DNA of 32,000 nt from Nostoc sp. PCC 7120 = FACHB-418. Lineage in GTDB: Bacteria; Cyanobacteriota; Cyanobacteriia; Cyanobacteriales; Nostocaceae. Under the pieces are notes generated by a model. That model was not told where the DNA came from, ran no database searches, and saw only the letters and a program-made list of their open reading frames with translations. The stretch lies in NCBI RefSeq assembly GCF_000009705.1, contig NC_003272.1, forward strand, positions 4,620,001 through 4,652,000, written 5' to 3'. This document shows positions 3,078 through 27,871 of the stretch, piece by piece; position 1 is the first letter of the stretch, and each line of letters begins with the position of its first letter. Made by a program: the position numbers and the translations under genes.

Positions 3078-3177
3078 GTAACAGGGGACAGGTGACAAAA
3101 TTTCCTTTACACCCTTACTTCATTAGCAGCGCAACTACGAGCAGCAGGTATTGAACCACAAGAGTAGACTTTTGACT

Positions 3178-3978
3178 ATGACTACTTTCTCTAACTACGT
3201 CCCCCAATCTGACCCGCCGCGTCCTCCGTGGGAAACCCTACCAACAATGTATGATTTACCTAGCGACAACCCAGAGGAGCCAGGCTTGCCAGACGATTTC
3301 CATTTTTTACAGCCCTTACTTTTATACTTAACCTTTCAACCAATTAACTGGAATCCCGAATTAGTTTACAGTGCGGCTGACCTGAATCTTTATTACGATC
3401 TTGATCATCCACTATGGTACAAACGCCCTGATTGGTTTGGCGTTGTGGGAGTACAAAAACTCTACAAAGGTGAAGATTTGCGTTTAAGTTATGTCACTTG
3501 GCAAGAACCCGCAAATCCCTTTGTCGTCGTGGAATTATTATCCCCAGGTACAGAAGATGAAGATTTAGGCATTACTCAAAAGCCAACAGCTAAACCTCCT
3601 AGCAAATGGGAAGTTTACGAGCGAATTTTGCGAATCCCTTACTATATTGTGTTTAGTCGCTACACCAATGAACTGAGAGCTTTTCAGTTAGTAGGTGGTC
3701 ATTATGAAGCGATAAATTTAACTGAGGGACGTATACTCATGCCAGAGTTGGGTTTAAGTTTGGGTGTATGGCAAGGAGCGTTTCGAGATATTAACAGGTT
3801 GTGGCTACGTTGGTTCACCTTAACAGGGGAATTAATTTCTGAGCCGACAGAAGAAGTTGTTGCAGCTACGGAACGAGCAATGATTGCTGAACAGGAAGTT
3901 GAAAAGGCAAAAAGAAAAGCAGAACAACTAGCAGAACGTCTGCGACAACTAGGAGTGAATCCTGATGAGCTAGTGTAA
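3178..3978 (+). CDS. Uma2-family (DUF820) PD-(D/E)XK endonuclease
   Basis: Motifs typical of cyanobacterial Uma2 proteins: YDLPSDNPEEPGLPDDFH, VVELLSPGTEDEDL and the C-terminal tail AERLRQLGVNPDELV. ATG at 3178 is preferred over the track's TTG at 3151. Confidence 0.8.
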   Translation: MTTFSNYVPQSDPPRPPWETLPTMYDLPSDNPEEPGLPDDFHFLQPLLLYLTFQPINWNPELVYSAADLNLYYDLDHPLWYKRPDWFGVVGVQKLYKGEDLRLSYVTWQEPANPFVVVELLSPGTEDEDLGITQKPTAKPPSKWEVYERILRIPYYIVFSRYTNELRAFQLVGGHYEAINLTEGRILMPELGLSLGVWQGAFRDINRLWLRWFTLTGELISEPTEEVVAATERAMIAEQEVEKAKRKAEQLAERLRQLGVNPDELV

Positions 3979-5721: not shown

Positions 5722-5974
5722 ATTTAAAACTCCTTTGAGTTAAACCAAAAAATTGATAGACGTAAACAAGAGGACAATTTTACTTTGCTTTACAGTATTT
5801 GTCTAAGTTGTTCATAATTTTTGACGAATGATAACGCTTTTTAGTCTTAATCTAACTAACATATAATAGAAAGTTTTTCCTCAGCCACAGGAAATATCTT
5901 AGTTGGATTATTATGCAATGTATAAGAATTAAAAATGGTTTAGCTATAGGAAGTTGTATAATCTAAAACTAAAA

Positions 5975-7393
5975 ATGGCTAATCGAAAATTACCGAAAAA
6001 GCAGAATTTATACTTTGAAAGATTGATGGCAACTATTGCCACATTAAACTTATTCTTAGTTTTATTTGATTTGAGCTATGTGCCGTGGCGGGATTTTTAC
6101 TTACGGAAAGTACCAGAAATAACTAAAATTTATGACCCCATTAAGGGTATTGAACAGCACAGAGAAACGCAAAATTATTTAAATAAAATCAACCTTTTAA
6201 AAGCAGAGGTAAGTCAAACAGGTATTACATCACCAGCAGTAAAAACTCAATTACAAGAGATCAGTCGTCTTAGCAACGAGATGATTGAAGGTAACCCATT
6301 TGCCGCCGCAGGTAAAAGTGGGACTTTAGAAAGAATCAAAAAGCGAATGCGCGATCGCATCGGTAATGATTCAGCCAAACAATCATTTGCTACCTTTTGG
6401 AGCCAGCCATACCTATCTCAAAAAGGCTGGTTACAAGAAATTACCTTTTTTAACCAGAAAATCAGTCCTTTAATTGCTACAAATTATTACCGCCAAATCG
6501 GGGAAAACAACGAATTCATTAATTATTTTTGGCTGATAGATTTGCCATTTGTTTGCTTATTTGGCTTAGAGTTACTAGGACGCGTAATTTATATCAGAGG
6601 TAGGCATCCAGGGTTCAGCTGGTTAAATGCTATTTTGTGGCGATGGTATGATTTATTCCTATTAATTCCCTTCTGGCGCTGGTTGCGGATAATACCTGTA
6701 GCGATTCGCCTAGATCATGCCCATTTAATAAACCTACAACCCATAAATAAACAAATTCACCAAGTAGTTGTCGCTAATTTTGCTGAAGAACTCACAGAAA
6801 TTGTCATCATTCGCGTCATTAACCAGATTCAGGGATCAATTCAAAAGGGTGAAATTACACGCTGGTTGCTGCAAAACGACAAATTGCGTCCCTACATAGA
6901 CATTAACGATATCAATGAAGTGGAAGCGATCGCTGGTCTTTTAGTTCAAACTATCGTTGATCAAGTCTTGCCAAAAATCCAACCAGAACTCATTGCCTTA
7001 TTACAGCACAGTATCAACAGCGCCTTTCACCAAGTCCCCATCTACAAGAACCTACAAGCCTTACCCGGAGTTGGACAAGCTCAAAGCCAACTCAGCGAAC
7101 AACTAGCCACCCAAATTACCACAAATCTCTACAACGTCCTAGCCAGTGCTATCAAAGATCCCGTCGGTGCAAAACTCTCCAGCCAACTTGCCAATAGCTT
7201 TACCCAAGCCTTAGGCAACGAAATACAGCAAAAGCACGTACTCTCCGAAATCCAAAGTTTACTAGTTGACTTCCTAGAAGAAGTCAAACTCAACTACGTC
7301 CAGCGTTTATCCCAAGAAGACATCGACCAAATTATCGAACAAACTAGACAAATCAAATCAATTCCCAATTCGATGCTGAGGAGTAGAGAGTAG
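5975..7393 (+). CDS. Conserved membrane protein with a voltage-sensor-like TM segment cluster and a long helical soluble C-terminus
   Basis: Long ORF with TM segments (ATIATLNLFLVLFDLSYV; FWLIDLPFVCLFGLELLGRVIY; WYDLFLLIPFWRWLRIIPVAIRL). ATG at 5975 is preferred to the track's TTG at 5954, which overlaps a TATAAT at 5957-5962. The start is uncertain. Confidence 0.7.
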   Translation: MANRKLPKKQNLYFERLMATIATLNLFLVLFDLSYVPWRDFYLRKVPEITKIYDPIKGIEQHRETQNYLNKINLLKAEVSQTGITSPAVKTQLQEISRLSNEMIEGNPFAAAGKSGTLERIKKRMRDRIGNDSAKQSFATFWSQPYLSQKGWLQEITFFNQKISPLIATNYYRQIGENNEFINYFWLIDLPFVCLFGLELLGRVIYIRGRHPGFSWLNAILWRWYDLFLLIPFWRWLRIIPVAIRLDHAHLINLQPINKQIHQVVVANFAEELTEIVIIRVINQIQGSIQKGEITRWLLQNDKLRPYIDINDINEVEAIAGLLVQTIVDQVLPKIQPELIALLQHSINSAFHQVPIYKNLQALPGVGQAQSQLSEQLATQITTNLYNVLASAIKDPVGAKLSSQLANSFTQALGNEIQQKHVLSEIQSLLVDFLEEVKLNYVQRLSQEDIDQIIEQTRQIKSIPNSMLRSRE

Positions 7394-10361: not shown

Positions 10362-13300
10362 ATGAACAACGGCAAAGTTAGAATCTACGAATTATCAAAG
10401 GAATTGAATTTGGATAACAAAGAGCTATTAGCAATTTGCGACCAGCTCAATATTGCGGTCAAAAGCCATAGCAGTACAATTTCAGAATCAGAGGCAGAAA
10501 GTATCCGGGCAGCTGCGGAAAAACTTGCAGCTACAAATGGAACATCTAAAAAAGAATTAAACGCAACCAGCCATAAACCAAATTCAGCACCTGCTGGCTC
10601 GCGCAACCGACCTGCGCCCCCACAAAAACAACAACAAATTTTGGAAATCCGTAAACCCAAAATATTGAGAAACACTACCTCCAACGCTCCTGAAGCGTCA
10701 GTTGCTAATAACCAGATTGCTTCTTCTGAAGCCAATTCTCCAGCACCTCCACGGCCCTTCGCTACACCAGTCTCGCCCATGAAGCCGACGGCACCATCTC
10801 GACCCGTACCAAGGAATCTATCTGAGACCCCGCAAAAACCTGCTGCACCAGAAGCAGAGCCGGAAGCTCAATCACAGGCTCCAGCGAAAATCGCAGTAGA
10901 GAAGCCAGAAAAATCAGCTCAGCCCAGACCAGGTAAACCAGAGAGACAACCAAAACCTCAACTGGTAGCGCCTCCCAGTAGACCTACAGCAGAAAAACTG
11001 GATCTATCTGAAATAACAGGTGCGCCGGGCGAAAAACCAATTCTCAAACGCGATCGCCCACGCCGTGAAGATGAGCGCGACCAAGCTAAACCAAGAGTCG
11101 CCAAACCTGCACAGGGAGAAACCTCATCCGCTCCTGTACAAAAACAGGCTCGCCCCGCCCAAGGTCTAGTCAAACCAGAGCAACGTGTCAACAGACCAGG
11201 CGCTCCATCGGGTGACGGCATACGTCCCCAAAGACCAGTCCGCCCGTCAGCAGATGCCGCACCAGTTGCCACCCCACCTAGAGGAGTTCCCGGCGGCGGC
11301 AGAGGAGAGGCAGGTGATACAGCAGCGATCGCCCCAGACCTACTCGATTTGAAACGCCCGACACCACCCCGTCTCGCCAAAGGTGGCAAGAAGTGGCAGG
11401 AAGAAGAAATCATCGACGAAATCAAAGAAAAAGCTGGCAAGGCTGGCGTTAAAGGCAAACGCGTCAAGCCATTGGTGGAAGATGATTTTGAAGATGAAGA
11501 TTTACTAGATGAAGAGGGATTAGAAATACCCGCAACCGTCCAAGTTAGTCTTTCCATTGCTCGTCCTCCCAAACCCAAAGCAGCCAGATCCGCCAGTGCA
11601 GCAACGGCAGCACCAATTAGTAGTCCTACCACTCGTGGTAAGAGGTCTAGTCATAACAACCGTGACCAAAACCGCCGCCAAGAAACAGAAGTTAAACGTG
11701 AGCGGCCAGAAAAAGTTGCGGTCACAGGGGCAATGACAGTGCAAGAGTTAGCTGACCTTATGGCAGTTGCTGACACAGAAATAGTGAAAATCCTGTTCAT
11801 GAAAGGCATGGCAGTGAGTATCACCCAAAATCTGGATATTCCGACAATTACCTTGGTAGGCAAAGAGCTAGAGATAGAAGTCGAGACTGCTGAACCAGAA
11901 GCAGAAGCCCGTAAAGTCACGGAAATGATCGAAGTTGGCGACTTGGAACATCTCCTGCGTCGTCCGCCAGTAGTGACAATCATGGGTCACGTAGACCACG
12001 GTAAGACTACCCTCCTCGACTCGATTCGCAAAACCAAAGTAGCAGCCGGTGAAGCTGGCGGGATTACCCAGCATATAGGCGCATACCACGTTGATATCGT
12101 CCATGACGGTAAAGAACAGCAGATTGTCTTCTTAGATACCCCCGGTCACGAAGCCTTCACAGCCATGAGAGCAAGAGGCGCTAGGGTAACAGATATCGCC
12201 GTCTTAGTTGTGGCCGCAGACGATGGTGTTCGTCCCCAAACAGTGGAGGCAATTAGCCACGCTCAAGCAGCCGGAGTACCAATTGTTGTTGCTATCAACA
12301 AAATTGATAAAGAAGGCGCACAACCAGACCGAGTGAAACAAGAACTCACTCAGTATGGTTTGACCTCAGAAGAGTGGGGTGGTGAAACAATCATGGTTCC
12401 CGTGAGCGCCATCAGGGGTGAAAATCTCGATACCCTTCTAGAGATGATTCTGTTAGTAGCAGAAGTTGGTGAACTCTCCGCCAACCCAGACCGGAATGCC
12501 AGAGGAACAGTCATTGAAGCCCACCTGGATAAAGCCAAGGGCGCAGTTGCTACCCTATTGATTCAGAACGGTACACTCCATGTAGGAGATATACTACTTG
12601 CTGGTTCAGCATTTGGTAAAGTCCGGGCAATGGTTGACGATCGCGGCAGAAGAGTAGATATAGCTGGGCCTTCATTTGCAGTTGAGGTACTGGGTTTAAG
12701 TGACGTACCCGCCGCAGGTGATGAATTTGAGGTATTCGACAACGAAAAAGAAGCCAGAGCGCTGGCCTCAGATCGTGCCGACAAGCAACGTCTATCTCGT
12801 CTACTACAAGGACGTGTCACCCTCACAACCCTATCGGCGCAAGCTCAAGAAGGCGAGTTGAAAGAACTCAACCTGATCTTGAAAGGCGACGTACAAGGTT
12901 CTGTAGAAGCAATTGTGGGATCACTCAAACAAATCCCCCAAAACGAAGTACAGATTCGGATGCTGTTAACTGCGGCTGGCGAAATCACCGAAACAGATAT
13001 CGACTTAGCAGCAGCCAGTGGAGCTGTAATTATCGGCTTCAACACCACCTTCGCCAGTGGAGCCAGACAAGCTGCTGATGAAGCAGGAGTAGACGTGCGG
13101 GAATACAACATCATCTACAAACTGATCGAAGATATCCAAGGCGCATTGGAAGGTCTGTTAGAACCAGAGTTGGTAGAAGAACCCCTTGGTCAAACAGAAG
13201 TCCGCGCTGTCTTCCCAGTTGGTCGTGGTGCTGTTGCTGGTTGTTACGTTCAGTCTGGCAAACTAGTCCGCAACTGCAAAGTGCGGGTACGTCGTGCCGG

Positions 13301-15943: not shown

Positions 15944-16774
15944 CTAATTTTCTACAACTTCCTGAACTTGCTCAATCGTCAAATCCAAAGCACCTGCTAT
16001 CTGTTCTACATTCAACCCCAAGGCCAGTAACCGAGGAATAGCCTCTAACTTTGCTTGTAACTTACCTTCTTGTCTACCTTCCTGTCTACCTTCTTGTCTA
16101 CCTTCTTCTAGTCCATCTTCCTTAATAGACTGATACATCCTAGTTTTTTTGAATTCATCATCTATACCCAACATAGCTGCTACCTCCTCTCGGCTTAAGT
16201 TGGTGAATTTGTACAACAAGATAGTTTCTATTAATTCTACAATTTGTTTTTTGTTTGCTTCATCGGTCAGTTCTTGCCTTGCCTGTATAATCAGTTGTCT
16301 ACCTTGGTCAATAGCTGTTGCTTCACTGGCAATAATTAGTTGCACGATCGCTAATTGCAGAGAGTTTTCGCTAGCCGTCCCTAACTCATCTAAATAAATG
16401 CGTTGTATTTGGGAACTATCCAAAATCAAACGATAAGGTTGTTGATCATCCGGTTCTATGATGCGTTGGGGATAAATGACAACAGCACGCCAAAAGTTAA
16501 CAGATGGGTTTTGACGGAGATAAAGAAAGATTTCGGCAAAGAAGCGTCTATAAAATTTAGGATCTAGTTGAAACTGAACTTCAACAAAATATAGGGGTTC
16601 TTCTGTGCTTTCATTAACAGGTTTAAATACCCCATCAATGCGAAAAGCAGTTTCCTTTAGTTCCACTGAGACAAACTCATAGGTACTGGGATTAATATCT
16701 GTTTCCCCAATGATGGCAAAAAATATGCTGGGGAACGCTTGAAACAAGCTGTAGAATATTTTGTCTGTTTGCAC
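15944..16774 (-). CDS. Rpn-family (DUF2887 N-terminal PD-(D/E)XK, DUF4351-like C-terminal) recombination-promoting nuclease/putative transposase homologue
   Basis: N-terminus MQTDKIFYSLFQAFPSIFF..., nuclease-like core RIDGVF...LYFVEVQFQ, an EGRQ x3 repeat, and a C-terminal helical domain ...IPRLLALGLNVEQIAGALDLTIEQV. GTG start. Confidence 0.75.
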   Translation of the reverse strand: MQTDKIFYSLFQAFPSIFFAIIGETDINPSTYEFVSVELKETAFRIDGVFKPVNESTEEPLYFVEVQFQLDPKFYRRFFAEIFLYLRQNPSVNFWRAVVIYPQRIIEPDDQQPYRLILDSSQIQRIYLDELGTASENSLQLAIVQLIIASEATAIDQGRQLIIQARQELTDEANKKQIVELIETILLYKFTNLSREEVAAMLGIDDEFKKTRMYQSIKEDGLEEGRQEGRQEGRQEGKLQAKLEAIPRLLALGLNVEQIAGALDLTIEQVQEVVEN

Positions 16775-16802: not shown

Positions 16803-16980
16803 AACTCCATCATTCCACTTCTAAACACGAAACTTCAAGTTTTAAACTGGAGCGATCGCCTCCAAAACTCCATCATTCCACCTCAAAACACGAAACTTCA
16901 AGTAAAAAGGGTGAGCGATCGCCTCCACAACCCCATCATTCCACCTCAAAACATAAAACTTTATGTTTAGGTGATCGCTG
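16803..16980. repeat. Tandem repeat, 63-bp unit x 2.8, each unit carrying a HIP1(-like) site
   Basis: Units start at 16803, 16866 and 16929 (aac[t/c]ccatcattccac...). Units 1 and 2 end in gagcgatcgcctcca. Unit 3 is truncated at the TPR gene's stop codon. Confidence 0.9.
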
Positions 16981-19113
16981 TTATTGTTCTGAGGAGAGGC
17001 GATCGCGCAACTCTGCTAAATTTTCACGCATAGTAACAGTATCTGGGTGGTTTGCCCCTAAAATTCTCTCTAAAATATCTAAAGCTTGAATGTACAAAGG
17101 TTCCGCTTCGCTGTATCTGCCTTGGGAATCGTAGAGTAATGCTAAACTGCGACGACTAAGTGCGACTGAAAGATGTTCTTCACCTAATAGTTTGCGCGTT
17201 AGCGCTAAAGCTTGAATGTAAAAGGATTCGGCTTCGCTGTATCTGCCTTGGTAGTGGTAGAGTGTGGCTAAATTGTTGAAGCTTTGTGCGACTGAAAGAT
17301 TTTCTTCCCCCAGCAATTTGCGCCACAGTGCCAAAGCTTGAATGTACAAAGGTTCCGCTTTGCTATATCTGCCTTGAAAAAAGTAGAGTGCAGCTAAATT
17401 GTTGAGGCTTTGTGCAACATCGGGATGTTCTTCACCCAGGAGTTTGCGCCTCATTGCCAAAGCTTGAATGTACAAAGGTTCCGCTTCGCTGTATCTGCCT
17501 TGGGAACGGTAGAGTGCAGCTAAATTGTTGAGGCTTTGTGCAACATCGGGATGTTCTTCACCCAGGAGTTTGCGACTCAGTGCCAAAGCTTGAATGTACA
17601 AAGATTCCGCTTCGCTGTATCGACCTTGAGATTTGTAGAGTCCTGCTAAATTGTTGAGGCTGGTGGCGACATCTGGATGTTCTTCACCAAACAGTTTATG
17701 GTACAGTACTAAGGCTTGGATGTATAAAGGTTCGGCTTCACTGTATCTGCCTTGGGACTGGTATAGTACTGCTAGATTGTTGAGGCTGATGGCAACATTG
17801 GGATGTTCTTCCCCCAGCAATTTACGCCACAATGCCAAAGCCTGGATGTGCAGAGGTTCGCCTTCACTGTATCTACCTTGGGAATCGTAGAGTGCGGCTA
17901 AATTGTTGAGACTGACAGCGACATCAGGATGTTCGTCCTCCAGCAGTTTACGGTACAGTACTAATGCTTGGATGTATAAGGGTTCGGCTTCACTGTATCT
18001 GCCTTGGGACTGGTATAGTCTGGCAAGATTATTGAGACTGTGTGCGACCTCTGTATGTTCTTCACCCAGCAGTTTACGGTATAGTGCTAAAGCTTGGCTA
18101 TACAAAGGTTCAGCTTCACTATATCTGCCTTGATAGCGGTAGAGTACTGCTAGGTTGTTGAGACTTTGTGCAACATCGGGATGTTCTTCACCCAGTAGTT
18201 TGCGTGTGAGTGCCAAGGCTTCTATGTACAAATGTTCAGCTTCGCTGTATTTGCCTTGGGAACGGTAAAGCAATGCTAAGTTATTAAGGCTGGTGGCTAA
18301 GTCTTGATCTAAACCTAACTCTTTTTGCAACTCAACAGCCTTGCTTAAATACTTAATGCCTAAGTCTTGCTCTTGCTGATAATCTTGAAACTCTCCCCGG
18401 TTGAGTCTTTTTCTATAAATATCTCCTAAGCTAAAGTATAAAGTCGCTAAAGTTGCATCTTTCACACCGCGCTGTTCTAAATCTTGAATAAATCCTTGCA
18501 AATCTTCTATGGGTAATAAATAATCATTTTCATCATCAAAACCTGAAATCTCATCGTCACTGAAAGCAAAACGAATTGCTTCTATATCTCTACCAGAAAT
18601 AGTATTTTTTCTTCTAGACACAAACCGGAAAACACCATTGCGCCAACTCCAAAAATCAGGTGCTTTCTTCCTCAAATCACCCAATATTTGATTAGTCACC
18701 CAGAGAACTATAGCAAAAGGAAATTCCCTTAACCCCTCTCTAGTCCACTGCAAGTAACCGAAAAAAATCTCTTGTTCTGAACGCTCATTCCCCAGCTTGA
18801 GAAAATAAAGCTGTTCTGCACCAGTTACAGTAATAACTGCTGGGTTATGTTGCTGCAAATATTCTTCTCTTTCCACCAATTGAGCAACAGCAGCCCTCAA
18901 ACTCGGTTCACCCCGCGCTAATGTCACCCGATAGCAACGAATTTCTGGCTGTAATTCTGCCTCATACTGAGCAATAATCTCATCTCGGAAACTGGCATCA
19001 TCACAAACGGCAATTAGCAAATTTAATCGATGTGCTTTAGCCTCAATAGAAACCATTAAATCATCATAAGCATCTCGATTTTCTCCATCTGCTAATAAGT
19101 CTTCATTCACCAT
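16981..19113 (-). CDS. TPR protein: unassigned ~270-aa N-terminal domain plus ten 42-aa tetratricopeptide (TPR_10/12, kinesin-light-chain-like) repeats
   Basis: Ten repeats matching VAxSLNNLAxLYxSQGRYSEAEPLYIQALALxRKLLGEEHPD (aa 272-691). The ATG start is embedded in the end of the upstream ATPase gene. Confidence 0.9.
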   Translation of the reverse strand: MVNEDLLADGENRDAYDDLMVSIEAKAHRLNLLIAVCDDASFRDEIIAQYEAELQPEIRCYRVTLARGEPSLRAAVAQLVEREEYLQQHNPAVITVTGAEQLYFLKLGNERSEQEIFFGYLQWTREGLREFPFAIVLWVTNQILGDLRKKAPDFWSWRNGVFRFVSRRKNTISGRDIEAIRFAFSDDEISGFDDENDYLLPIEDLQGFIQDLEQRGVKDATLATLYFSLGDIYRKRLNRGEFQDYQQEQDLGIKYLSKAVELQKELGLDQDLATSLNNLALLYRSQGKYSEAEHLYIEALALTRKLLGEEHPDVAQSLNNLAVLYRYQGRYSEAEPLYSQALALYRKLLGEEHTEVAHSLNNLARLYQSQGRYSEAEPLYIQALVLYRKLLEDEHPDVAVSLNNLAALYDSQGRYSEGEPLHIQALALWRKLLGEEHPNVAISLNNLAVLYQSQGRYSEAEPLYIQALVLYHKLFGEEHPDVATSLNNLAGLYKSQGRYSEAESLYIQALALSRKLLGEEHPDVAQSLNNLAALYRSQGRYSEAEPLYIQALAMRRKLLGEEHPDVAQSLNNLAALYFFQGRYSKAEPLYIQALALWRKLLGEENLSVAQSFNNLATLYHYQGRYSEAESFYIQALALTRKLLGEEHLSVALSRRSLALLYDSQGRYSEAEPLYIQALDILERILGANHPDTVTMRENLAELRDRLSSEQ
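17041..18300 (-). repeat. Intragenic tandem repeat, 126 bp x 10 (the TPR array)
   Basis: DNA strings such as ttc[cg]gcttc[ga]ctgtatctgccttgg recur with a 126-bp period. The protein repeats are near-identical except at a few columns. Confidence 0.9.
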
Positions 19114-20419
19114 TAATTAACCCCCTGCGTCTCAGAGTCTCTACAAGAATGGGGTGAATATCATACCAAGTTTCATCATTACGATATTCCAAAACATACA
19201 ACCCATGCAGTAATTCTAAAAACTCCTGTTGCTGTACATCTTCCGGCTCGAACTGCTCATAAGTAGTTTTCAAAATTTCAAAATCGTCTCTTCCTAGACG
19301 CAGAGAAAGATCATTACGAATTTGCTTAATGGCTTCTTCTATAATTTGGTCATTAATAACAATTTTCTCTCCTGGTTTCTGCCTGATAAGCCGCAAACAA
19401 ATGCGACAACACACATTACCCAGACGAATTAATTCACGCAGCACTCCACCACTGTAAACAACAATCTTCTCTGCTGCTGATTTGTCTATTAATTCACTAG
19501 AAATGCGTTTTTGTAAGATTTCACATAAAATATTTTTGGCTTCACTTCGAGGCTGGGCATCAGGCAAACGATTGTCACCCTTAGCAAAAATCTTGATAAC
19601 AGGCATCACCACAGTTTGATAATTAGTTTCTGCACCAATAAGTGGCCAGAGAAAAGTGTCACACATTACCGAAATAGGGATAGTATAGATAATCCGAAAA
19701 TTAGGTTGAAACAGAGCTTTAATATTATCTCGATAAATATCATTAACTCTTCCCAAATCTAGTTTATCTAAATCATCAATGATGACTATAACTTCTTGTT
19801 TAGTAGCAAATTGAATCAATGCAGCAATTTCATTAATTCGGGCAACTAAATCTGATATTTTCCGTTCAAATTCCTGTGTAATTTCCTCTCTAACTTTTGC
19901 GTCAGCCTTTAATTGAGCTTTCAGGAAAGTGAGCAAATTAACACTAGCTTCAATCCCACCTCCCAACTCTGCCTCTGTAGTCCGAGTACGAGTTGCAAAC
20001 CATCCATAAAGTTTATCTTTAGTAGTTTGAGGAATTTGTACTTTGCGTGCTTCTGCCTCGTACATTAAATTAAGAGCGATCGCAAACAGAATATTGACAT
20101 GATTAACAGCCGACATTTCAATAGTGTCAGCAATAGAAAATAAAACTACAAAAAAATTATCCTGAACTTGTCTACTAAATTCGGCTAATAAAGAAGACTT
20201 TCCACATCCTCGATGTCCAGTAAATACAAACTTGCCATCACCATTAGGGCTATCTTCAACTAATTGCCGCAAATCTGCTATTAAATCATCACCATAATCT
20301 ACACGAAACTGCTCCATTAATTTCTCTCCCATCAATGGAAACAATTCGAGATTGCTATAAGCTTCCTGGAAAGATTTTAATAATTCCTTAGACATAAACA
20401 AACTATGGCAACATAACAT
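19103..20419 (-). CDS. P-loop NTPase, ORC/Cdc6- or STAND-like (NBD + helical + winged-helix-like tail)
   Basis: Walker A GHRGCGKSS (aa 68-76), Walker B VIVIIDDLD (aa 210-218) and a sensor-2-like SGGVLRELIRLGN. It overlaps the downstream TPR gene by 11 nt. An alternative ATG at 20395 gives MSKELLK.... Confidence 0.85.
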   Translation of the reverse strand: MLCCHSLFMSKELLKSFQEAYSNLELFPLMGEKLMEQFRVDYGDDLIADLRQLVEDSPNGDGKFVFTGHRGCGKSSLLAEFSRQVQDNFFVVLFSIADTIEMSAVNHVNILFAIALNLMYEAEARKVQIPQTTKDKLYGWFATRTRTTEAELGGGIEASVNLLTFLKAQLKADAKVREEITQEFERKISDLVARINEIAALIQFATKQEVIVIIDDLDKLDLGRVNDIYRDNIKALFQPNFRIIYTIPISVMCDTFLWPLIGAETNYQTVVMPVIKIFAKGDNRLPDAQPRSEAKNILCEILQKRISSELIDKSAAEKIVVYSGGVLRELIRLGNVCCRICLRLIRQKPGEKIVINDQIIEEAIKQIRNDLSLRLGRDDFEILKTTYEQFEPEDVQQQEFLELLHGLYVLEYRNDETWYDIHPILVETLRRRGLINGE

Positions 20420-20511
20420 TTTTCATACTTACTTATATCATCACCCATCCTCGCAAAAATAGAACTATTCTCTGCGAAACTCTGCGCCAACCTCCGCGCC
20501 ACTTTGCGTAT

Positions 20512-20546
20512 AAAAAACATTACCCCTCTCCGCCGCCGGAAAGGGG
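20512..20546 (-). terminator. Intrinsic terminator of the ndhCKJ operon
   Basis: The minus strand reads cccctttccg-gcgg-cggagagggg then taatgtttttt. The 10-bp stem is complete only on the minus strand, where one pair is G-U (C-A on plus). It lies 50 nt after the ndhJ stop. Confidence 0.7.
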
Positions 20547-20595
20547 TTAAAGATGAGATATGAAAATTCTCACAAGCTGACACTTAGTACTCAGC

Positions 20596-21123
20596 CTAAT
20601 AAGCGTCCTGCAATTCGTAGAAATCAGGCGAAATGTAATCCTTCCGCAAAGGCCAACCTACCCAATCTTCCGGCATCAAAATCCGCTTCAAATTGGGGTG
20701 TCCTTCGTAGATAATGCCGAACATATCGTAAGATTCGCGTTCTTGCCAGTCTGCGGTTTTCCAAATCCAGTACACCGAAGGAACTACCGGATTTTCCCGT
20801 GGTAAGAACACCTTCACCCTGATTTCTTCAGGCTTATCAGCATTGTCACTCACCTTCACCAAGTGATACACGCTAACCAAATCCTGTCCTGGCCCAAGGT
20901 CAACACCACCTTGAAACTGGAGATAATTAAACCCGTAAGCATACAGGGCTGTAGCGATGGGAAGCAAGAAATCTGCCTCCACTTTAATTATCTCCACGCC
21001 GTTTTTGTCGGCTGCCAAAGATTCATGAGCAAAGCCATTTTCCGTTAGCCACTGGGAAGTCGGCCCAGATGGAACTATAGCGGCTTCTGCTGCGGGTACT
21101 GGTTGTAATTCTTCATCAGCCAC
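20596..21123 (-). CDS. ndhJ: NAD(P)H-quinone oxidoreductase (NDH-1) subunit J
   Basis: Strong NdhJ-like sequence (...VYHLVKV...[23 protein letters not shown]...). GTG start overlapping the ndhK stop. Confidence 0.95.
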
Positions 21124-21853
21124 GTTTTTGTTCCTCCTTCTGGGTTTGTGATGTCAGCAGTGCTGGGGGAACAGGAAGACCGATCGCTTCTGTCAACTCT
21201 TTTGGTGGGTTGAAGCGAGTCTCTGACTGCATATACTTACCAGTTAAGATGTCTGGTACTGGCTTCAAGTTATGAGTCGTGCTGTAGAAACGATGGGTTT
21301 GCCGAATCAGACTCCGTTCCTGCATAGAGTCGTTAGCAATCTTCTTCCGCAGCTTAATAATTGCGTCGATAATTGCTTCCGGACGGGGAGGACAACCAGG
21401 TAAGTAGACATCCACGGGAATTAACTTATCAACTCCCCGCACAGCCGTAGGCGAATCAACGCTAAACATACCGCCTGTAATTGTGCAAGCACCCATCGCA
21501 ATTACATACTTAGGTTCGGGCATTTGTTCATAAAGACGCACCAATTGAGGAGCCATCTTCATGGTGATTGTCCCAGCTGTGATAATCAAATCGGCTTGAC
21601 GGGGACTGGAACGGGGAATTAACCCGAAGCGGTCAAAGTCAAAACGCGAACCAATTAATGCTGCAAACTCAATAAAGCAGCAAGCTGTACCAAACAACAA
21701 CGGCCACAGGCTCGAAAGCCTAGCCCAGTTATAGAGGTCATCAACCGTAGTTAAAATCACATTTTCCGACAGGTCTTGAGTGATTGTAGGACGTTCAATG
21801 GGGTTGATGATTCGCTCTTTGTCCTGAGTAGTTAAATCAGAATTCAAGACCAT
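21116..21853 (-). CDS. ndhK: NDH-1 subunit K
   Basis: Fe-S ligand motifs [17 protein letters not shown] and LPGCPPRPE. Overlaps ndhC by 10 nt. Confidence 0.96.
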
Positions 21854-25246: not shown

Positions 25247-27871
25247 TCACATACCAAGTAAGTCATTTAGGCTAACATTAGGCAAATCAGGAGGAATTAC
25301 AGTTTTTACTATTGTGACCTTGTGACTTTCCTGCTGGGTAGCTGTATTGAGAGCGATCGCCTCTATCCGAATCTCCATGCAGCCAAAGGGAATATTGAGT
25401 TGAGTCATCGCTTCCAGGTTACCTGAGGAGTTCTGTAACAACTCTTTTAGTAGGTGGGGCCCATCCAACAACCAGCGAGTTTGACAGTCTTCCACCCACA
25501 ATTTGACTACAACTTGTGGGGATACTTGTGGCAATTCTACTCGTATCCTCACTAAAGTACCAGCAATCAGTTCCCCATCTGGTACATACAGTTGGGGAAT
25601 CGGTAAGGGTTCCAGAATTTCCTGGGGAGCGTCAATTGTATTTGCGATCGCCTGCTGCTCGGTTTTTGGTAATTGATTATTGTTTGTCTCCAATTCCGGC
25701 TCATTGTCGCTGTCATCTACGACAAATTCTTGAGCTAACCAACTTGATGCTGTGTAAGTGGGTTCTGTCGAAGGTAATTCGAGTTGTAACACCGATGATT
25801 CTGGAGAGATGTCTTCTATCCCCACAGACATCTGTTTTTCTGTTTCCTCTGGAGTGATTAAATCTGTCTCCACTGCCTCTGCTTGCACATCTAAGAGAGA
25901 TGACAAGCTATCGTCAAACTCTAGAGTTGCAGGACTCAGGGGAATGATAGCAGGTTCTTCTGGCGCGGGCTGCTCCTGTGGAAAATCACTTGTATTTGTG
26001 ACAAATTCAGGTAAGGAGTATCCTTGACGCTCCATCCACTTGCGAATTAAAGGCGATGAATAGGGAAGTGATGGAGAAATTGATATTGCTGATACATTTT
26101 CATCAATTAACTCTGTTATAGGCTCTGCTGCTAATTCTGTTGCCGATGTGTTAGTTTCTAGAGTCTCAATGACTTCTGCCATTGGTTGAGACTCTAGCTC
26201 TGCCACAACTTCATCATGAACCTCTATATCACTCAGCACATCTTCTAAATTAGTTTCCGGCTCAGTAATTAAGTTATCAACCTGTGGCAATTCCTGTACA
26301 ACGGATTCGATTAATTCGTCAGCAATTTGGCTTGTTTTCACTTCGCTACTACTAGGCTCGCTTGGTAAGCGCTTTAAGTAAGGTAAAGTACTGCCCAGAA
26401 TCCGTGAGCGACGTGCTTTGATGAGCAACTGATCCAAGTTGATGGGAGCGGGAGCTTGGGGGACAGTTGTATCATTCTGTTCCAAGAGAGGAAGTTCTAA
26501 GGTCAGTTCTGTCACTAAATCAGCTGGAGCGATGCCATCAGTGGGATTATCGGGTAATTTTGGTAATTGTGGGAAACGGAAATCGGCTGATTTATTTAAC
26601 GATTGTGAATCAATTTGCCCCGGTAAAGGCGTGTTTATAGATGGAATAGTTGGCTGTAATTTTCTTGGAGATGAGGTTTTAACTAGGTTAAACAGTTCCA
26701 AATCCAAACTTATAGGGGCTTCAGCCGTGGATATTCCTAAAATTGTGCCATTTTGCTCATCTACTGGGCTAGCCTTGACTGCATTTTTAACCGCCAGCAA
26801 ATCAGCCACATCTGCCGTAATTGTGAAAGAGTGACTAGCCAGTAAGGTCACTGCTTCAGGATTAGCTTTAGCCTCTGCCACGGCGTAGCCCATCACCCCA
26901 TATAATTTGATATCTGCCAAAATTAGCTTAGATTCACAGTCAGCAGGAATATCTATCACCGAACGGATAGTTATAGGTAATGATTTTTCTCCTAGAGATT
27001 GACGTAATTGAGTTAATATTCCTGAGCTTAGAGGCGATCGCAACTCAATGCGGAGTTCCAAAGCACGGAGGTTTTCTGTACTGACCGTCTTATCTGCCTG
27101 TTCTAGATTTTTTTGTAACTCTACATTCCCATGAATAGTTAACAAATGTCCCCATCGAGTAATGTATGTTTCTCGATCCAGCGTCAGCAATAGGGGTAGG
27201 GATGGTTCCGAGGTTGGCGAATCTTCAACTTTTGCGTCTTCTAATAAAAGTTCAGAAGTGGGTAATGCTAAGTCAATTAAATTTTGTAAAATTTGCTCTG
27301 CCGTTTCGCCTTTAACCCAAACTGGATTTACAGGCTCATCAATTACTGTACCTTCTTGGTCTAGGGAAAAACCGGTACTGAGAAAGTAACTCTCATTAGT
27401 AATTGTTAGTTCTGTTCCAGAATTTGATGTCAAATTTCCATCAGATAGGGAGTCTGGCTGATGAAATGAATCGATTTCTAAGGTATTTTCTATCTCTAGT
27501 TCCTGTTCTACCTCATCTGCTGCCTGAGAATTTACTTGCAGATGAACACCATATTGCCAAGATTTACCAAGAATATCTGATATCAAGTCGCCAGAGCAGC
27601 GCAATTCCCAAATACCCGGTTTGAGGTATGTGAAAGGAATTACCGCCATTAAGCCTTCGGAATTGGTGCGGCGCAGTCGTTTTTGAATCCGCCGCTTTGG
27701 CGGCACTTCCTGGGGCGAGAAGTAAGTTACGCGCACTTCCACATCTTGATTGGGAAGGCTAGAACGAGCTAAAACTCTATACCGACCCTCTACGATTTCT
27801 GTGTTTGGCGATTCCAAGGCGTGCCAAGAGCGATCGCCTTGCTTCTGAATCAGAAATTGCCAGTGTTCCAT
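25247..27871 (-). CDS. Large hypothetical protein (874 aa): globular-looking N- and C-terminal domains separated by a ~600-aa acidic, low-complexity region
   Basis: Uninterrupted 2.6-kb ORF with an ATG start. N-terminus MEHWQFLIQKQGDRSWHALESP...GIWELRCSGD.... The middle is rich in E/D/P/S/T/L. No catalytic motif recognised. Confidence 0.8.
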   Translation of the reverse strand: MEHWQFLIQKQGDRSWHALESPNTEIVEGRYRVLARSSLPNQDVEVRVTYFSPQEVPPKRRIQKRLRRTNSEGLMAVIPFTYLKPGIWELRCSGDLISDILGKSWQYGVHLQVNSQAADEVEQELEIENTLEIDSFHQPDSLSDGNLTSNSGTELTITNESYFLSTGFSLDQEGTVIDEPVNPVWVKGETAEQILQNLIDLALPTSELLLEDAKVEDSPTSEPSLPLLLTLDRETYITRWGHLLTIHGNVELQKNLEQADKTVSTENLRALELRIELRSPLSSGILTQLRQSLGEKSLPITIRSVIDIPADCESKLILADIKLYGVMGYAVAEAKANPEAVTLLASHSFTITADVADLLAVKNAVKASPVDEQNGTILGISTAEAPISLDLELFNLVKTSSPRKLQPTIPSINTPLPGQIDSQSLNKSADFRFPQLPKLPDNPTDGIAPADLVTELTLELPLLEQNDTTVPQAPAPINLDQLLIKARRSRILGSTLPYLKRLPSEPSSSEVKTSQIADELIESVVQELPQVDNLITEPETNLEDVLSDIEVHDEVVAELESQPMAEVIETLETNTSATELAAEPITELIDENVSAISISPSLPYSSPLIRKWMERQGYSLPEFVTNTSDFPQEQPAPEEPAIIPLSPATLEFDDSLSSLLDVQAEAVETDLITPEETEKQMSVGIEDISPESSVLQLELPSTEPTYTASSWLAQEFVVDDSDNEPELETNNNQLPKTEQQAIANTIDAPQEILEPLPIPQLYVPDGELIAGTLVRIRVELPQVSPQVVVKLWVEDCQTRWLLDGPHLLKELLQNSSGNLEAMTQLNIPFGCMEIRIEAIALNTATQQESHKVTIVKTVIPPDLPNVSLNDLLGM

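Follow-up and report, generated by a model that had tools for sequence, protein, structure and literature searches.

What purpose is served by the two overlapping genes that lie between the ndhCKJ operon and a gene for an Rpn-like nuclease in Nostoc sp. PCC 7120? They encode an AAA+ ATPase and a protein with tetratricopeptide repeats (TPRs), and they are located on the minus strand of the 32,000-nt stretch that we analysed (NCBI RefSeq assembly GCF_000009705.1, contig NC_003272.1, positions 4,620,001 to 4,652,000), hereafter the window, whose own numbering is used throughout. A preliminary description of this DNA took the pair for a STAND protein split over two polypeptides. That view has to be modified: the TPR protein begins with a degenerate AAA+-like domain of its own (the N-domain), and in distant relatives this same domain heads a complete nSTAND1-WD40 protein. 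We consider that the two genes may form a bipartite, NLR-like, ATP-dependent sensor switch, and we give this reading, with a role in conflict or in the sensing of non-self as the most likely function, about an even chance. The conflict role is rated highest because the distribution of the pair is accessory, because its sensor part turns over quickly and because relatives are found in TIR, CHAT, MoxR, nSTAND1-WD40 and plasmid contexts.

Both open reading frames can be taken as real genes rather than chance occurrences, since homologues are found with E values down to 1e-279 and dN/dS is low (ATPase 0.03-0.13, N-domain 0.11-0.19). The TPR protein gene (16981-19113, minus strand) encodes 710 amino acids. 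The ATPase, a protein of KAP_NTPase/AAA_16 type, is encoded on the same strand by a frame that spans 19103-20419 at its longest reading, and it was initially given as 438 amino acids long. In an alignment of the ndhJ-ATPase spacer from ten relatives, however, it is the ATG at 20395 that is conserved as the start, the ATG at 20419 being out of frame in the relatives. The gene is thus shortened to 19103-20395, with a product of 430 amino acids beginning MSKELL; database homologues measure 426-434 amino acids, and the best of them has the E value of 1e-279. The two minus-strand frames overlap by 11 nt, as previously described. Their junction reads ttaattaATGGTGAATGAag, in which the ATG of the TPR gene occupies 19113-19111 and the TGA of the ATPase gene 19105-19103. 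Within this coupling junction (19103-19126, minus strand), an AGGGGG Shine-Dalgarno-like run at 19121-19126 is followed by a 7-nt spacer, the distance to the start of the TPR gene, and then by ATGGTGAATGA.

Judged from its sequence, the ATPase is a soluble AAA+ protein that looks active, with intact Walker A, Walker B and sensor-2-like motifs. All the motifs first listed for it, and those listed for the TPR protein, are present in the translations, and residues of the ATPase motifs are conserved in the family alignment (all on the minus strand). In the Walker A motif GHRGCGKS (residues 60-67; 20195-20218), G60, H61, G63, G65, K66 and S67 are invariant even when paralogues at 23-28% identity are included. 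The Walker B motif VIVIIDDLD (residues 202-210; 19766-19792) has a nearly invariant D207 and an invariant D210 across the family, and in the sensor-2-like SGGVLRE (residues 315-321; 19433-19453) S315, G316 and G317 are invariant and R320 nearly so. Towards the C-terminus, WYDIHP (residues 410-415; 19151-19168) retains W410 and P415 without exception, while H414 is kept in orthologues and is N in the distant paralogues linked to WD40 proteins. T238, P240, P265, R297 and E403 are further invariants in the alignment with the paralogues at 23-28% identity. Together with the two Walker motifs, the ATPase therefore keeps a sensor-1-like threonine, a candidate arginine finger in R297, an unvarying residue that the sequence places between sensor 1 and sensor 2, and the sensor-2 arginine, the last of these in a box, SGGVLRELIRL, that we take to resemble the GDAR box of Cdc6/Orc1.

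To which family such a protein belongs is less readily said. Two Pfam models match above their cut-offs, AAA_16 at 36.1 bits and KAP_NTPase (PF07693) at 30.8 bits (cut-off 20). Among the curated STAND models the best is NPHP3_N at 18.4 bits, below its cut-off of 24.8, and NACHT, NB-ARC and nSTAND do not appear at an E value of 0.1; the Cdc6 and ORC models of Pfam and NCBIfam do not match either. NCBIfam yields only a weak match to the Sll1717 family, and a literature search on sll1717 returned no match. PADLOC gives only noise for the ATPase (VakA 23 bits, PDC-S20 17.5, PifA 16), the NCBIfam anti-phage models DS8 and DS41, whose cut-offs are 370-790 bits, reach 16-19, and a profile search of the PDB has nothing below E 0.01. 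Structure is more informative. The AlphaFold2 (AF2) model (pLDDT 70.9) has an alpha/beta base, into which some 110 helical residues are inserted between strands 2 and 3, then a lid and a C-terminal tail. The helical insert of about 130 residues that had been proposed between the Walker motifs is borne out, as these are separated by about 134 residues and helices are modelled over residues 88-198. No transmembrane segment is found in the insert, where Kyte-Doolittle means over 19 residues do not exceed 1.34; a value of 1.6 is reached once, on the core strand beta-4. Foldseek against the PDB places archaeal and eukaryotic Cdc6/Orc1 first (2qby_A, E 8e-8, TM-score 0.48/0.55; 1fnn, E 1.8e-6), followed by RdrA of RADAR (E 2e-5), RuvB, TnsC and RFC, and the modelled fold is accordingly of the AAA+ base-lid kind known from Cdc6/Orc1 and RdrA. 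The winged-helix-looking tail of the preliminary description, which includes WYDIHP, stands as a possible winged helix after this base and lid, modelled at a pLDDT of 40-55.

The TPR protein has an N-terminus that had been described as having neither a Walker A motif nor a known family; indeed, Pfam, NCBIfam and PADLOC have no model over residues 1-245, and a sequence-profile search of the PDB with the N-domain gives nothing significant. The N-domain itself covers residues 1-170 (18604-19113, minus strand) and is predicted to be a five-stranded alpha/beta, AAA+/ORC-like domain without a P-loop. It is joined to the repeats by a linker (residues 171-200 or so, low confidence) and TPR-like capping helices (residues 201-266 or so in the AF2 model), which together occupy 18316-18603 on the same strand. 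The N-domain model, built from 66 sequences, has a pLDDT of 89.3 and a pTM of 0.85, and its elements run in the order helix, b1, a1, b2, a2, b3, a3, b4, a4, b5, before the TPR-like helices begin. Its Foldseek matches are ORC3, archaeal Orc2/Cdc6 (1w5t, 1fnn), SAMD9, Rif2, TnsC, ClpC, RFC and NLRP9, with E values down to 5e-5 and a probability of 1.0; the TM-scores of 0.33-0.38 are modest because the query includes the helical part too. Between b1 and a1, where a P-loop belongs, there are only three residues, C37-D38-D39 ('VCDD' in the place of Walker A), and for this reason the modelled domain should be unable to bind nucleotide in the usual way. L19, C37, L65, L72, G98, R125, E126, D153 and W157 are its invariant residues. 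A search with a profile of the N-domain only retrieved 312 proteins. All matches that bear an organism name are cyanobacterial, many are stand-alone proteins of 150-300 amino acids, and Pfam leaves the domain without annotation in nearly all of them.

Evidence that the ATPase and the N-domain belong together comes from their relatives. A scan of species-representative genomes yielded at least 553 genomic relatives, from which the best 80 ATPase-anchored loci, all in Nostocales, were compared. A gene for an N-domain/TPR protein follows the ATPase gene in every one of the 80, the junction lying within -11 to +7 nt throughout and the ATGnnnAATGA overlap being kept in 66. The same pair is adjacent in Microcystis and Phormidesmis, amid unrelated housekeeping genes, so that the co-conservation and translational coupling proposed at the outset hold well beyond this genome. 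More telling are plasmids of Acaryochloris, Nostoc and Calothrix, which carry paralogues that share 21-26% identity with the ATPase. The next large gene there starts with an N-domain (hhalign 95%, E 2e-8; hmmsearch E 1e-10 to 4e-27), and its product runs on into an nSTAND1 NTPase (111 bits) that is complete and then into WD40 propellers. Moorena and Lyngbya encode the N-domain by itself, in a small gene that stands between those of the ATPase and of an nSTAND1-WD40 giant; the Lyngbya gene and its ATPase neighbour overlap by 4 nt. N-domains stand beside ATPase paralogues in five distant operons in all. Because the N-domain there precedes a complete nSTAND1-WD40 protein or stands alone, the ATPase is better seen as an added partner that goes with the N-domain than as the split-off half of a STAND protein, and we favour, from these sequence relationships, the view that it is recruited through a dedicated dead-AAA+ domain.

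The family of the ATPase is large, a profile of it collecting 2,962 clusters at 50% identity, of which 344 have E values of 1e-30 or below. Among the matches listed, the named members are almost all cyanobacterial, one plasmid paralogue coming from an acidobacterium, and they are labelled 'ATP-binding protein' or 'tetratricopeptide repeat protein'. One member is a TIR fusion, a close homologue from Pseudanabaena belongs to a MoxR-CHAT cluster amid toxin-antitoxin genes, and the plasmid paralogues adjoin NB-ARC, TIR, NACHT, HicAB and CHAT genes. We rejected the idea that every relative of the ATPase has an N-domain partner, as the TIR-fused member and the MoxR-CHAT member of Pseudanabaena have none. 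Other arrangements were also seen: a WD40 protein on plasmid4 of Calothrix sp. NIES-4101 has two tandem N-domains, at residues 4-155 and 234-371 (locus L085, 8498-11179), two tandem ATPase paralogues precede the stand-alone N-domain gene in Lyngbya (locus L092, 2050-5004), and a single protein of 811 amino acids (P0258) is a possible fusion.

If the ATPase and the N-domain form the constant part of the module, the TPR array behaves, as far as sequence comparison can tell, like a fast-evolving recognition surface. Ten TPRs of 42 amino acids and of kinesin-light-chain (KLC) type, the number originally counted, lie in register at residues 267-686 (17056-18315, minus strand), and translation adds a C-terminal capping half-repeat with the stop codon (residues 687-710; 16981-17055, minus strand). 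Tandem Repeats Finder reports a 126-nt unit in 9.5 copies at 17081-18279, and the region matches TPR_12 (580 bits) and TPR_10 (472 bits) above cut-off as well as KLC1 (7ai4, E 1.6e-72); it has weak matches to the TPR_MalT and AfsR models and to NCBIfam Ycf3, and in PADLOC to a generic TPR model only. Fourteen of the 42 repeat positions never vary within the window array. Entropy peaks at positions 8, 15, 18, 19 and 37, which are all within the six most variable positions across 406 repeats from the 80 loci. By helical periodicity, positions 8, 15 and 18/19 (i, i+7, i+10/11) should share one face of helix A, flanking the invariant N11 and N12, and this face presumably corresponds to the ligand-binding groove of KLC-type TPRs.

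The array also changes in number and as a whole. TPR protein lengths range from 500 to 714 amino acids in steps of about 42, even where the ATPases are more than 97% identical. DNA identity to the two closest genomes is 93-98% over most of ndhK, ndhJ, the ATPase gene and the core of the N-domain, versus 62-68% in the array. Each lineage has its own homogenised repeat consensus, and the repeat type of the window is common to Nostoc sp. CHAB 5844, whose ATPase is 88% identical. When the arrays of these two strains are compared (CHAB 5844 being locus L004), amino-acid differences affect 10 of 30 variable positions versus 13 of 222 elsewhere (Fisher p = 5e-5). In a comparison with Anabaena sp. CCY 9910 and Nostoc parmelioides, dS of the ATPase is 0.13, about half that of ndhK/ndhJ (0.26-0.40; 20596-21853). 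For CCY 9910 the N-domain has a dS of 0.40 against the 0.13 of the ATPase, an inequality within one strain pair that points to recombination inside the operon, and the history of the ATPase/TPR operon is a mosaic one.

How firmly is the pair tied to ndhCKJ, next to which it is found in the window? Of the 80 loci, 37 have ndhC-K-J upstream of the pair and in the same orientation, at distances between 174 nt and 7.9 kb. Upstream flanks of 7.9 kb or more are available for 63 loci, which contribute 33 of these cases; the other four come from loci with shorter flanks. A terminator-like hairpin was identified just past ndhJ in a consensus scan (20522-20547, minus strand; an 11-bp stem with 7 GC pairs, then a T-run), and it is kept with compensatory stem changes in 11 aligned loci. 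This intrinsic-terminator-like element probably marks the end of the ndhCKJ operon and the upstream boundary of the module, where the preliminary description had let the block begin. Beyond it, the intergenic alignment contains a conserved motif, GGATGGGTGATGAT..ATAAGT (approximately 20425-20455, minus strand), which is a candidate promoter of the pair; a strict sigma-70 scan found no promoter on this strand. On account of the conserved terminator and the conserved upstream motif GGATGGGTGATGAT..ATAAGT, the pair looks like a transcription unit of its own.

The impression of a fixed syntenic core feature beside ndhCKJ is misleading because a sample anchored on the ATPase cannot reveal its absence, and we abandoned it after anchoring the comparison on NdhC instead. 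The exact NdhC protein occurs in ten distinct places. The pair directly follows ndhJ in three of them, namely GCA_014696765.1, which matches the window (100% identity over 16.4 kb to its JACJQP010000004.1), Nostoc sp. TCL26-01 and Anabaena sp. CCY 9910. In four, ndhJ is followed straight away by PBP-like, kinase and LysR genes, and two have a gene for a GAF protein instead. In the remaining place, GCA_009498015.1 (locus L100, CP034058, 9700-10300), only a 35-nt ATPase fragment and the 69 C-terminal amino acids of the TPR protein are left between ndhJ and Rpn, while the downstream genes of the window (Rpn, SDR and DUF1400) are kept and the flanks are 93-97% identical at the protein level. This genome is a deletion derivative, since nothing but fragments of the two genes is left between retained flanks. 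The pair is thus accessory and dispensable in nature. The variable presence at the ndhJ junction that had been anticipated is found, as the pair is present, absent or a remnant among genomes with identical NdhC, and it is for the same reason not universally present. Its hosts are filamentous and colonial cyanobacteria.

Taken together, these features suggest how the module could operate. The N-domain would dock on ATPase protomers as a non-catalytic AAA+ subunit, by analogy with ORC, clamp loaders and nSTAND2, and the TPR array would bind a variable ligand, which we assume to be a peptide or protein in the TPR groove because the repeats are of kinesin-light-chain type. Ligand binding may then alter the contact between N-domain and ATPase and so license ATP-dependent oligomerisation or hydrolysis. 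Since no enzymatic effector is encoded, the output would have to come from the ATPase itself, through its winged-helix tail on nucleic acid or through ATP turnover, or from unlinked partners, and the biological role would be the sensing of invaders or non-self in conflict or defence. In a bolder version, which we put forward only tentatively and hold to be less probable than the sensor switch as such, ATPase and N-domain are a cyanobacteria-wide coupling device that plugs a stand-alone Cdc6/KAP-like AAA+ motor into hypervariable receptors, be they TPR-only or nSTAND1-WD40 proteins. Bipartite NLR-like immune sensors built on such a device would be a class of their own, and a new one. In the minimal, effector-less form of the window the ATPase itself would then be the output, perhaps because it clamps nucleic acid or burns ATP.

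Several observations weigh against a role in conflict or against this mechanism. Neither protein has an effector domain that Pfam, NCBIfam or PADLOC recognises, as was noted early on, and the proposed PADLOC check (PADLOC-DB v2), now run together with the NCBIfam anti-phage models, gives no match above noise for the pair and does not list it as a known system. The 86 neighbour families have only generic PADLOC matches (Uma2, protein kinase, TatD), and the association with defence islands is weak for that reason; the clustering with defence genes that had been asked about is therefore poorly supported around the orthologues, the contexts of the paralogues being of conflict type. Apart from the genes treated below, most genes near the orthologues have housekeeping functions. 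The plasmid collection contains no orthologues, only the paralogues at 21-26% identity, and the phage collection no homologues. The breadth of the family in cyanobacteria and the purifying selection on both genes would also fit a cellular regulatory role. Near-identical repeats with few variable sites are common in many cyanobacterial TPR_10/TPR_12 proteins, and the pattern of repeat variation is for this reason not specific evidence for immunity. In addition, the C-terminal helix-hairpin-helix tail on which one form of output depends is the poorly modelled part of the ATPase, and an origin of N-domain and ATPase by recent duplication was discarded, as a profile-profile comparison detects no similarity and the folds alone agree.

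The pair may instead act in signalling or in the regulation of transcription outside any conflict, as a switch comparable to MalT or AfsR, in which the TPRs sense an endogenous ligand or protein, the ATPase oligomerises and the winged helix binds DNA. The fold of the ATPase, nearest to the DNA-binding initiators Cdc6/Orc1, and its winged-helix-like tail would suit such a function, as would the failure to find an effector domain in the pair, the purifying selection on both genes, the chromosomal site amid housekeeping genes and the weak TPR_MalT and AfsR matches on the repeats. However, no helix-turn-helix or other DNA-binding family was found, and the tail in question is modelled at low confidence. 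It is also not evident why a regulator should be dispensable and variably present among near relatives, nor why an array that recognises a fixed endogenous ligand should turn over rapidly and differ between strains at its variable positions, and the relatives that are TIR-fused or in CHAT, MoxR and nSTAND1-WD40 contexts speak another language. We therefore consider a regulator of this kind unlikely. Nearly the same standing, and certainly no better one, is accorded to the notion that the ATPase and N-domain couple is a helper, that is a chaperone, loader or regulator, of other NLR-like receptors, with the TPR-only protein as a decoy or adaptor feeding STAND proteins encoded elsewhere. In the distant operons the couple is indeed upstream of complete nSTAND1-WD40 proteins with an NTPase of their own, stand-alone N-domain proteins are common, and an ATPase homologue belongs to a MoxR-CHAT cluster. 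Yet no STAND gene is conserved near the orthologous pair, and the TPR protein of the window has the pattern of variable sites expected of a ligand-binding sensor.

The proximity of ndhCKJ, rubA, ycf48 and psbEFLJ raises the question of whether the pair could be a housekeeping chaperone or assembly factor for NDH-1 or photosystem II. Many TPR assembly factors are known in cyanobacteria, the repeats have a weak NCBIfam Ycf3 match, and the neighbourhood is suggestive, as 37 of the 80 loci have ndhC-K-J ahead of the pair in the same orientation and rubA, ycf48 and psbEFLJ are adjacent to the locus. This proximity is nevertheless offset by the conserved terminator that parts the pair from ndhCKJ and by the conserved upstream motif that the pair has to itself, by the lack of linkage to ndh in Microcystis, Phormidesmis and many Nostoc genomes, and by the absence or deletion of the pair in genomes with identical NdhC. 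Hypervariable repeats are ill-suited to invariant clients, and no model unicellular cyanobacterium is named among the best 120-150 matches of each homologue search, so that a function in photosynthetic complex assembly strikes us as improbable. More remote still is the idea that the pair is a decaying, functionless remnant of a larger system, kept by chance. The system has no effector, one relative retains a deletion remnant and one Nostoc locus looks degenerate, but dN/dS of 0.03-0.19, intact frames, a coupling junction conserved in 80 loci and invariant catalytic motifs leave very little room for it. The sensor switch with a function in conflict is the reading that we retain.

The genes that surround the pair in other genomes are a mixed company. 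The Rpn/DUF2887 PD-(D/E)XK gene that follows the pair in the window (15944-16774, minus strand) is what it was first said to be (TIGR01784, 223 bits), but it is not part of the module, and we rejected it as a member because it stands beside the pair in 5-6 of the 80 loci only. It is an independent, sporadic and probably selfish neighbour, since other loci hold XisH/XisI or Uma2 genes in its place: downstream of the pair there are XisH/XisI genes in 18-21 loci, Uma2 in 8 and Rpn in 5-6. On the upstream side, in 18-20 of the 80 loci, genes for Pepco and for a caspase (Peptidase_C14) that has an FGE-sulfatase domain fused to it lie between ndhJ and the ATPase gene on the same strand (e.g. the Nostoc loci L016, 3391-5851, and L052, 2891-5282); they are not found in the window. 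Pepco with caspase-FGE has been described as a protease-activated pore-forming defence module (PMC12642450), and we count its closeness to the pair in these loci in favour of a role in conflict. Some loci have a GIY-YIG gene upstream of the pair.

In composition the ATPase gene is AT-rich (GC 0.364, GC3 0.267), and so is the N-terminal part of the TPR gene (GC 0.388), whereas the TPR array, at 0.454, exceeds the window (0.428). The AT-rich block noted by eye is thus confined to the ATPase and the N-domain, and two unrelated genes of the window have the same low GC3 as the ATPase gene. Rfam and tRNA scans of the window gave no match. Repeats also occur outside the coding regions. A 63-nt tandem repeat (2.6 copies, 84% matches) fills 16803-16969 between the stop codon of the TPR gene and the start of Rpn; the repeat carries HIP1-like GCGATCGC sites, and loci L001 and L002 have related repeated copies in the corresponding position. 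Right after the ndhJ stop codon, in the spacer before the terminator, loci L007 and L013 have tandem heptamers, (AGTGCTG)n, whose copy number differs between loci and which resemble the short tandem repeats (STRR) known from Nostocales.

Elsewhere in the window, an open reading frame of 874 amino acids without a Pfam match (25247-27871, minus strand) appears to encode a conserved large protein: in all ten NdhC-anchored loci a gene for 841-874 amino acids, likewise without a Pfam family and matched by position and size, is found beside psaI and psbEFLJ. Another frame without a Pfam match, of 479 amino acids and with a GC of 0.39 (5954-7393, plus strand), sits between a gene with a peptidoglycan-binding domain and rimP-nusA-infB, and the surrounding 1-kb windows fall to a GC of 0.34. 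At 3151-3978 (plus strand), a putative restriction endonuclease of the Uma2 family is encoded between a radA-like gene and a gene for a serine protease of SDH type (ClpP-like); the PADLOC candidate PDC-S03 is matched by relatives of Uma2 in neighbouring loci. Finally, the 5' part of infB, the gene for IF-2 (10362-11500, plus strand), stands out in the window by a GC of 0.53 and an AT skew of up to 0.38, presumably a reflection of the low-complexity N-terminal region of IF-2.

If the sensor switch is correctly read, it would assign a role to a widespread family that is annotated only as ATP-binding or tetratricopeptide repeat proteins. It would also add a new kind of adaptor domain, in which a dead AAA+ module serves to recruit a live partner, and so extend the pairing of active and inactive STAND modules, which has been so far computational only, while providing a compact two-protein system in which to ask how an NLR-like sensor signals without an enzymatic effector. 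Even as a cellular regulator, the pair would be an AAA+/TPR switch of unusual, split design. Either way, natural variants in which the pair is present, absent or deleted in near-identical strains, and the roughly five variable positions per 42-residue repeat, are ready material for genetics.

Where does such a module stand among known systems? With STAND proteins as defined by Leipe et al. 2004 the ATPase shares a Walker A motif and a Walker B motif with extra acidic residues (GHRGCGKS, IIDDLD), but no curated model matches above its cut-off and the repeats are on the product of the neighbouring gene. The definition also has a helical domain and a winged helix with a conserved histidine after the NTPase; of these, the lid of the ATPase is well modelled, whereas the tail has a pLDDT of 40-55 and its H414 is kept in orthologues but is N in distant paralogues. 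STAND/NLR proteins with TPR or WD40 sensors (Avs, NB-ARC-TPR, nSTAND1-WD40, MalT, AfsR) likewise join an NTPase and its helical lid to a possible winged helix and to sensing repeats. Oligomerisation gated by a ligand, as we propose it, follows their logic too, and the paralogous operons hold true nSTAND1-WD40 proteins. Unlike them, the pair distributes NTPase and sensor over two polypeptides by way of an extra pseudo-AAA+ domain, has no N-terminal effector and, in its ATPase, keeps the sensor-2 arginine typical of initiator-clade AAA+ proteins. To that clade, Orc1/Cdc6 and ORC, belong the best structural matches of the two proteins, 2qby_A and 1fnn for the ATPase, ORC3 and archaeal Orc2 for the N-domain. 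By Foldseek and alignment, the ATPase has the base and lid, a possible winged helix and the sensor-2 arginine, R320, of a fold that characterises the clade, and ORC also mixes active and inactive AAA+ subunits. There is, however, no membership at the sequence level and no replication context, the module of the window being accessory, cyanobacterial and TPR-bearing.

KAP NTPases are reported by Aravind et al. 2004 to have transmembrane helices inserted in their NTPase domain. The ATPase resembles them in its PF07693 match above cut-off and in the large insert between Walker A and Walker B, but differs in that this insert is without a transmembrane segment. RdrA of RADAR is similar in structure (Foldseek E about 2e-5), yet RdrA is twice as long and there is no deaminase partner here. 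In fungal NLRs, the TPR, WD40 or ANK repeats are highly conserved internally, and these arrays, like the TPRs of KLC, share with those of the window near-identical scaffolds, few hypervariable positions, variation in repeat number and shuffling; the difference to fungal NLRs is that the window repeats are bacterial and sit on a pseudo-AAA+ domain rather than on NACHT or NB-ARC. iSTAND and iSTAND2 are ternary systems in which a MoxR-vWA pair and effectors are combined with a dead STAND module (Kaur et al. 2020, 2021; PMC7159879, PMC8195603). A catalytically dead STAND/AAA+-like core and an enrichment in multicellular cyanobacteria are common ground, but neither the window nor the 80 orthologous loci contain a MoxR or vWA gene.

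In the sections of the Aravind-lab papers and of the 2026 STAND survey that were available, the couple of ATPase and N-domain is not described. The nearest described concept is the nSTAND2 counter-invader operon, in which two adjacent genes encode an active STAND module and an inactive one with eroded NTP-binding motifs, and a hetero-oligomer is predicted (Kaur, Iyer, Burroughs, Aravind 2021, eLife; PMC8195603, section 15). The likeness is that here, too, two adjacent genes carry STAND/ORC-clade NTPase-like modules, one active by its motifs and one without a P-loop. The differences are that the inactive module of nSTAND2 is fused to effectors (GT4, HEPN) in a mobile operon, whereas here it is fused to TPRs (nSTAND1-WD40 in the paralogues) and the orthologues are chromosomal; moreover, the two proteins of the window share no detectable sequence similarity with each other. 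As to the nSTAND2/DAP3-S29/CR-ATPase branch, the DAP3/S29 Pfam model gives a faint 15.2 bits on the ATPase, below its cut-off of 23.1, and no nSTAND2 model is among the matches. NTPase-centred, repeat-sensing conflict systems enriched in multicellular cyanobacteria are an established theme, and the nSTAND2 operon, with its active and inactive partners, is the described variation on it to which the present pair comes closest.

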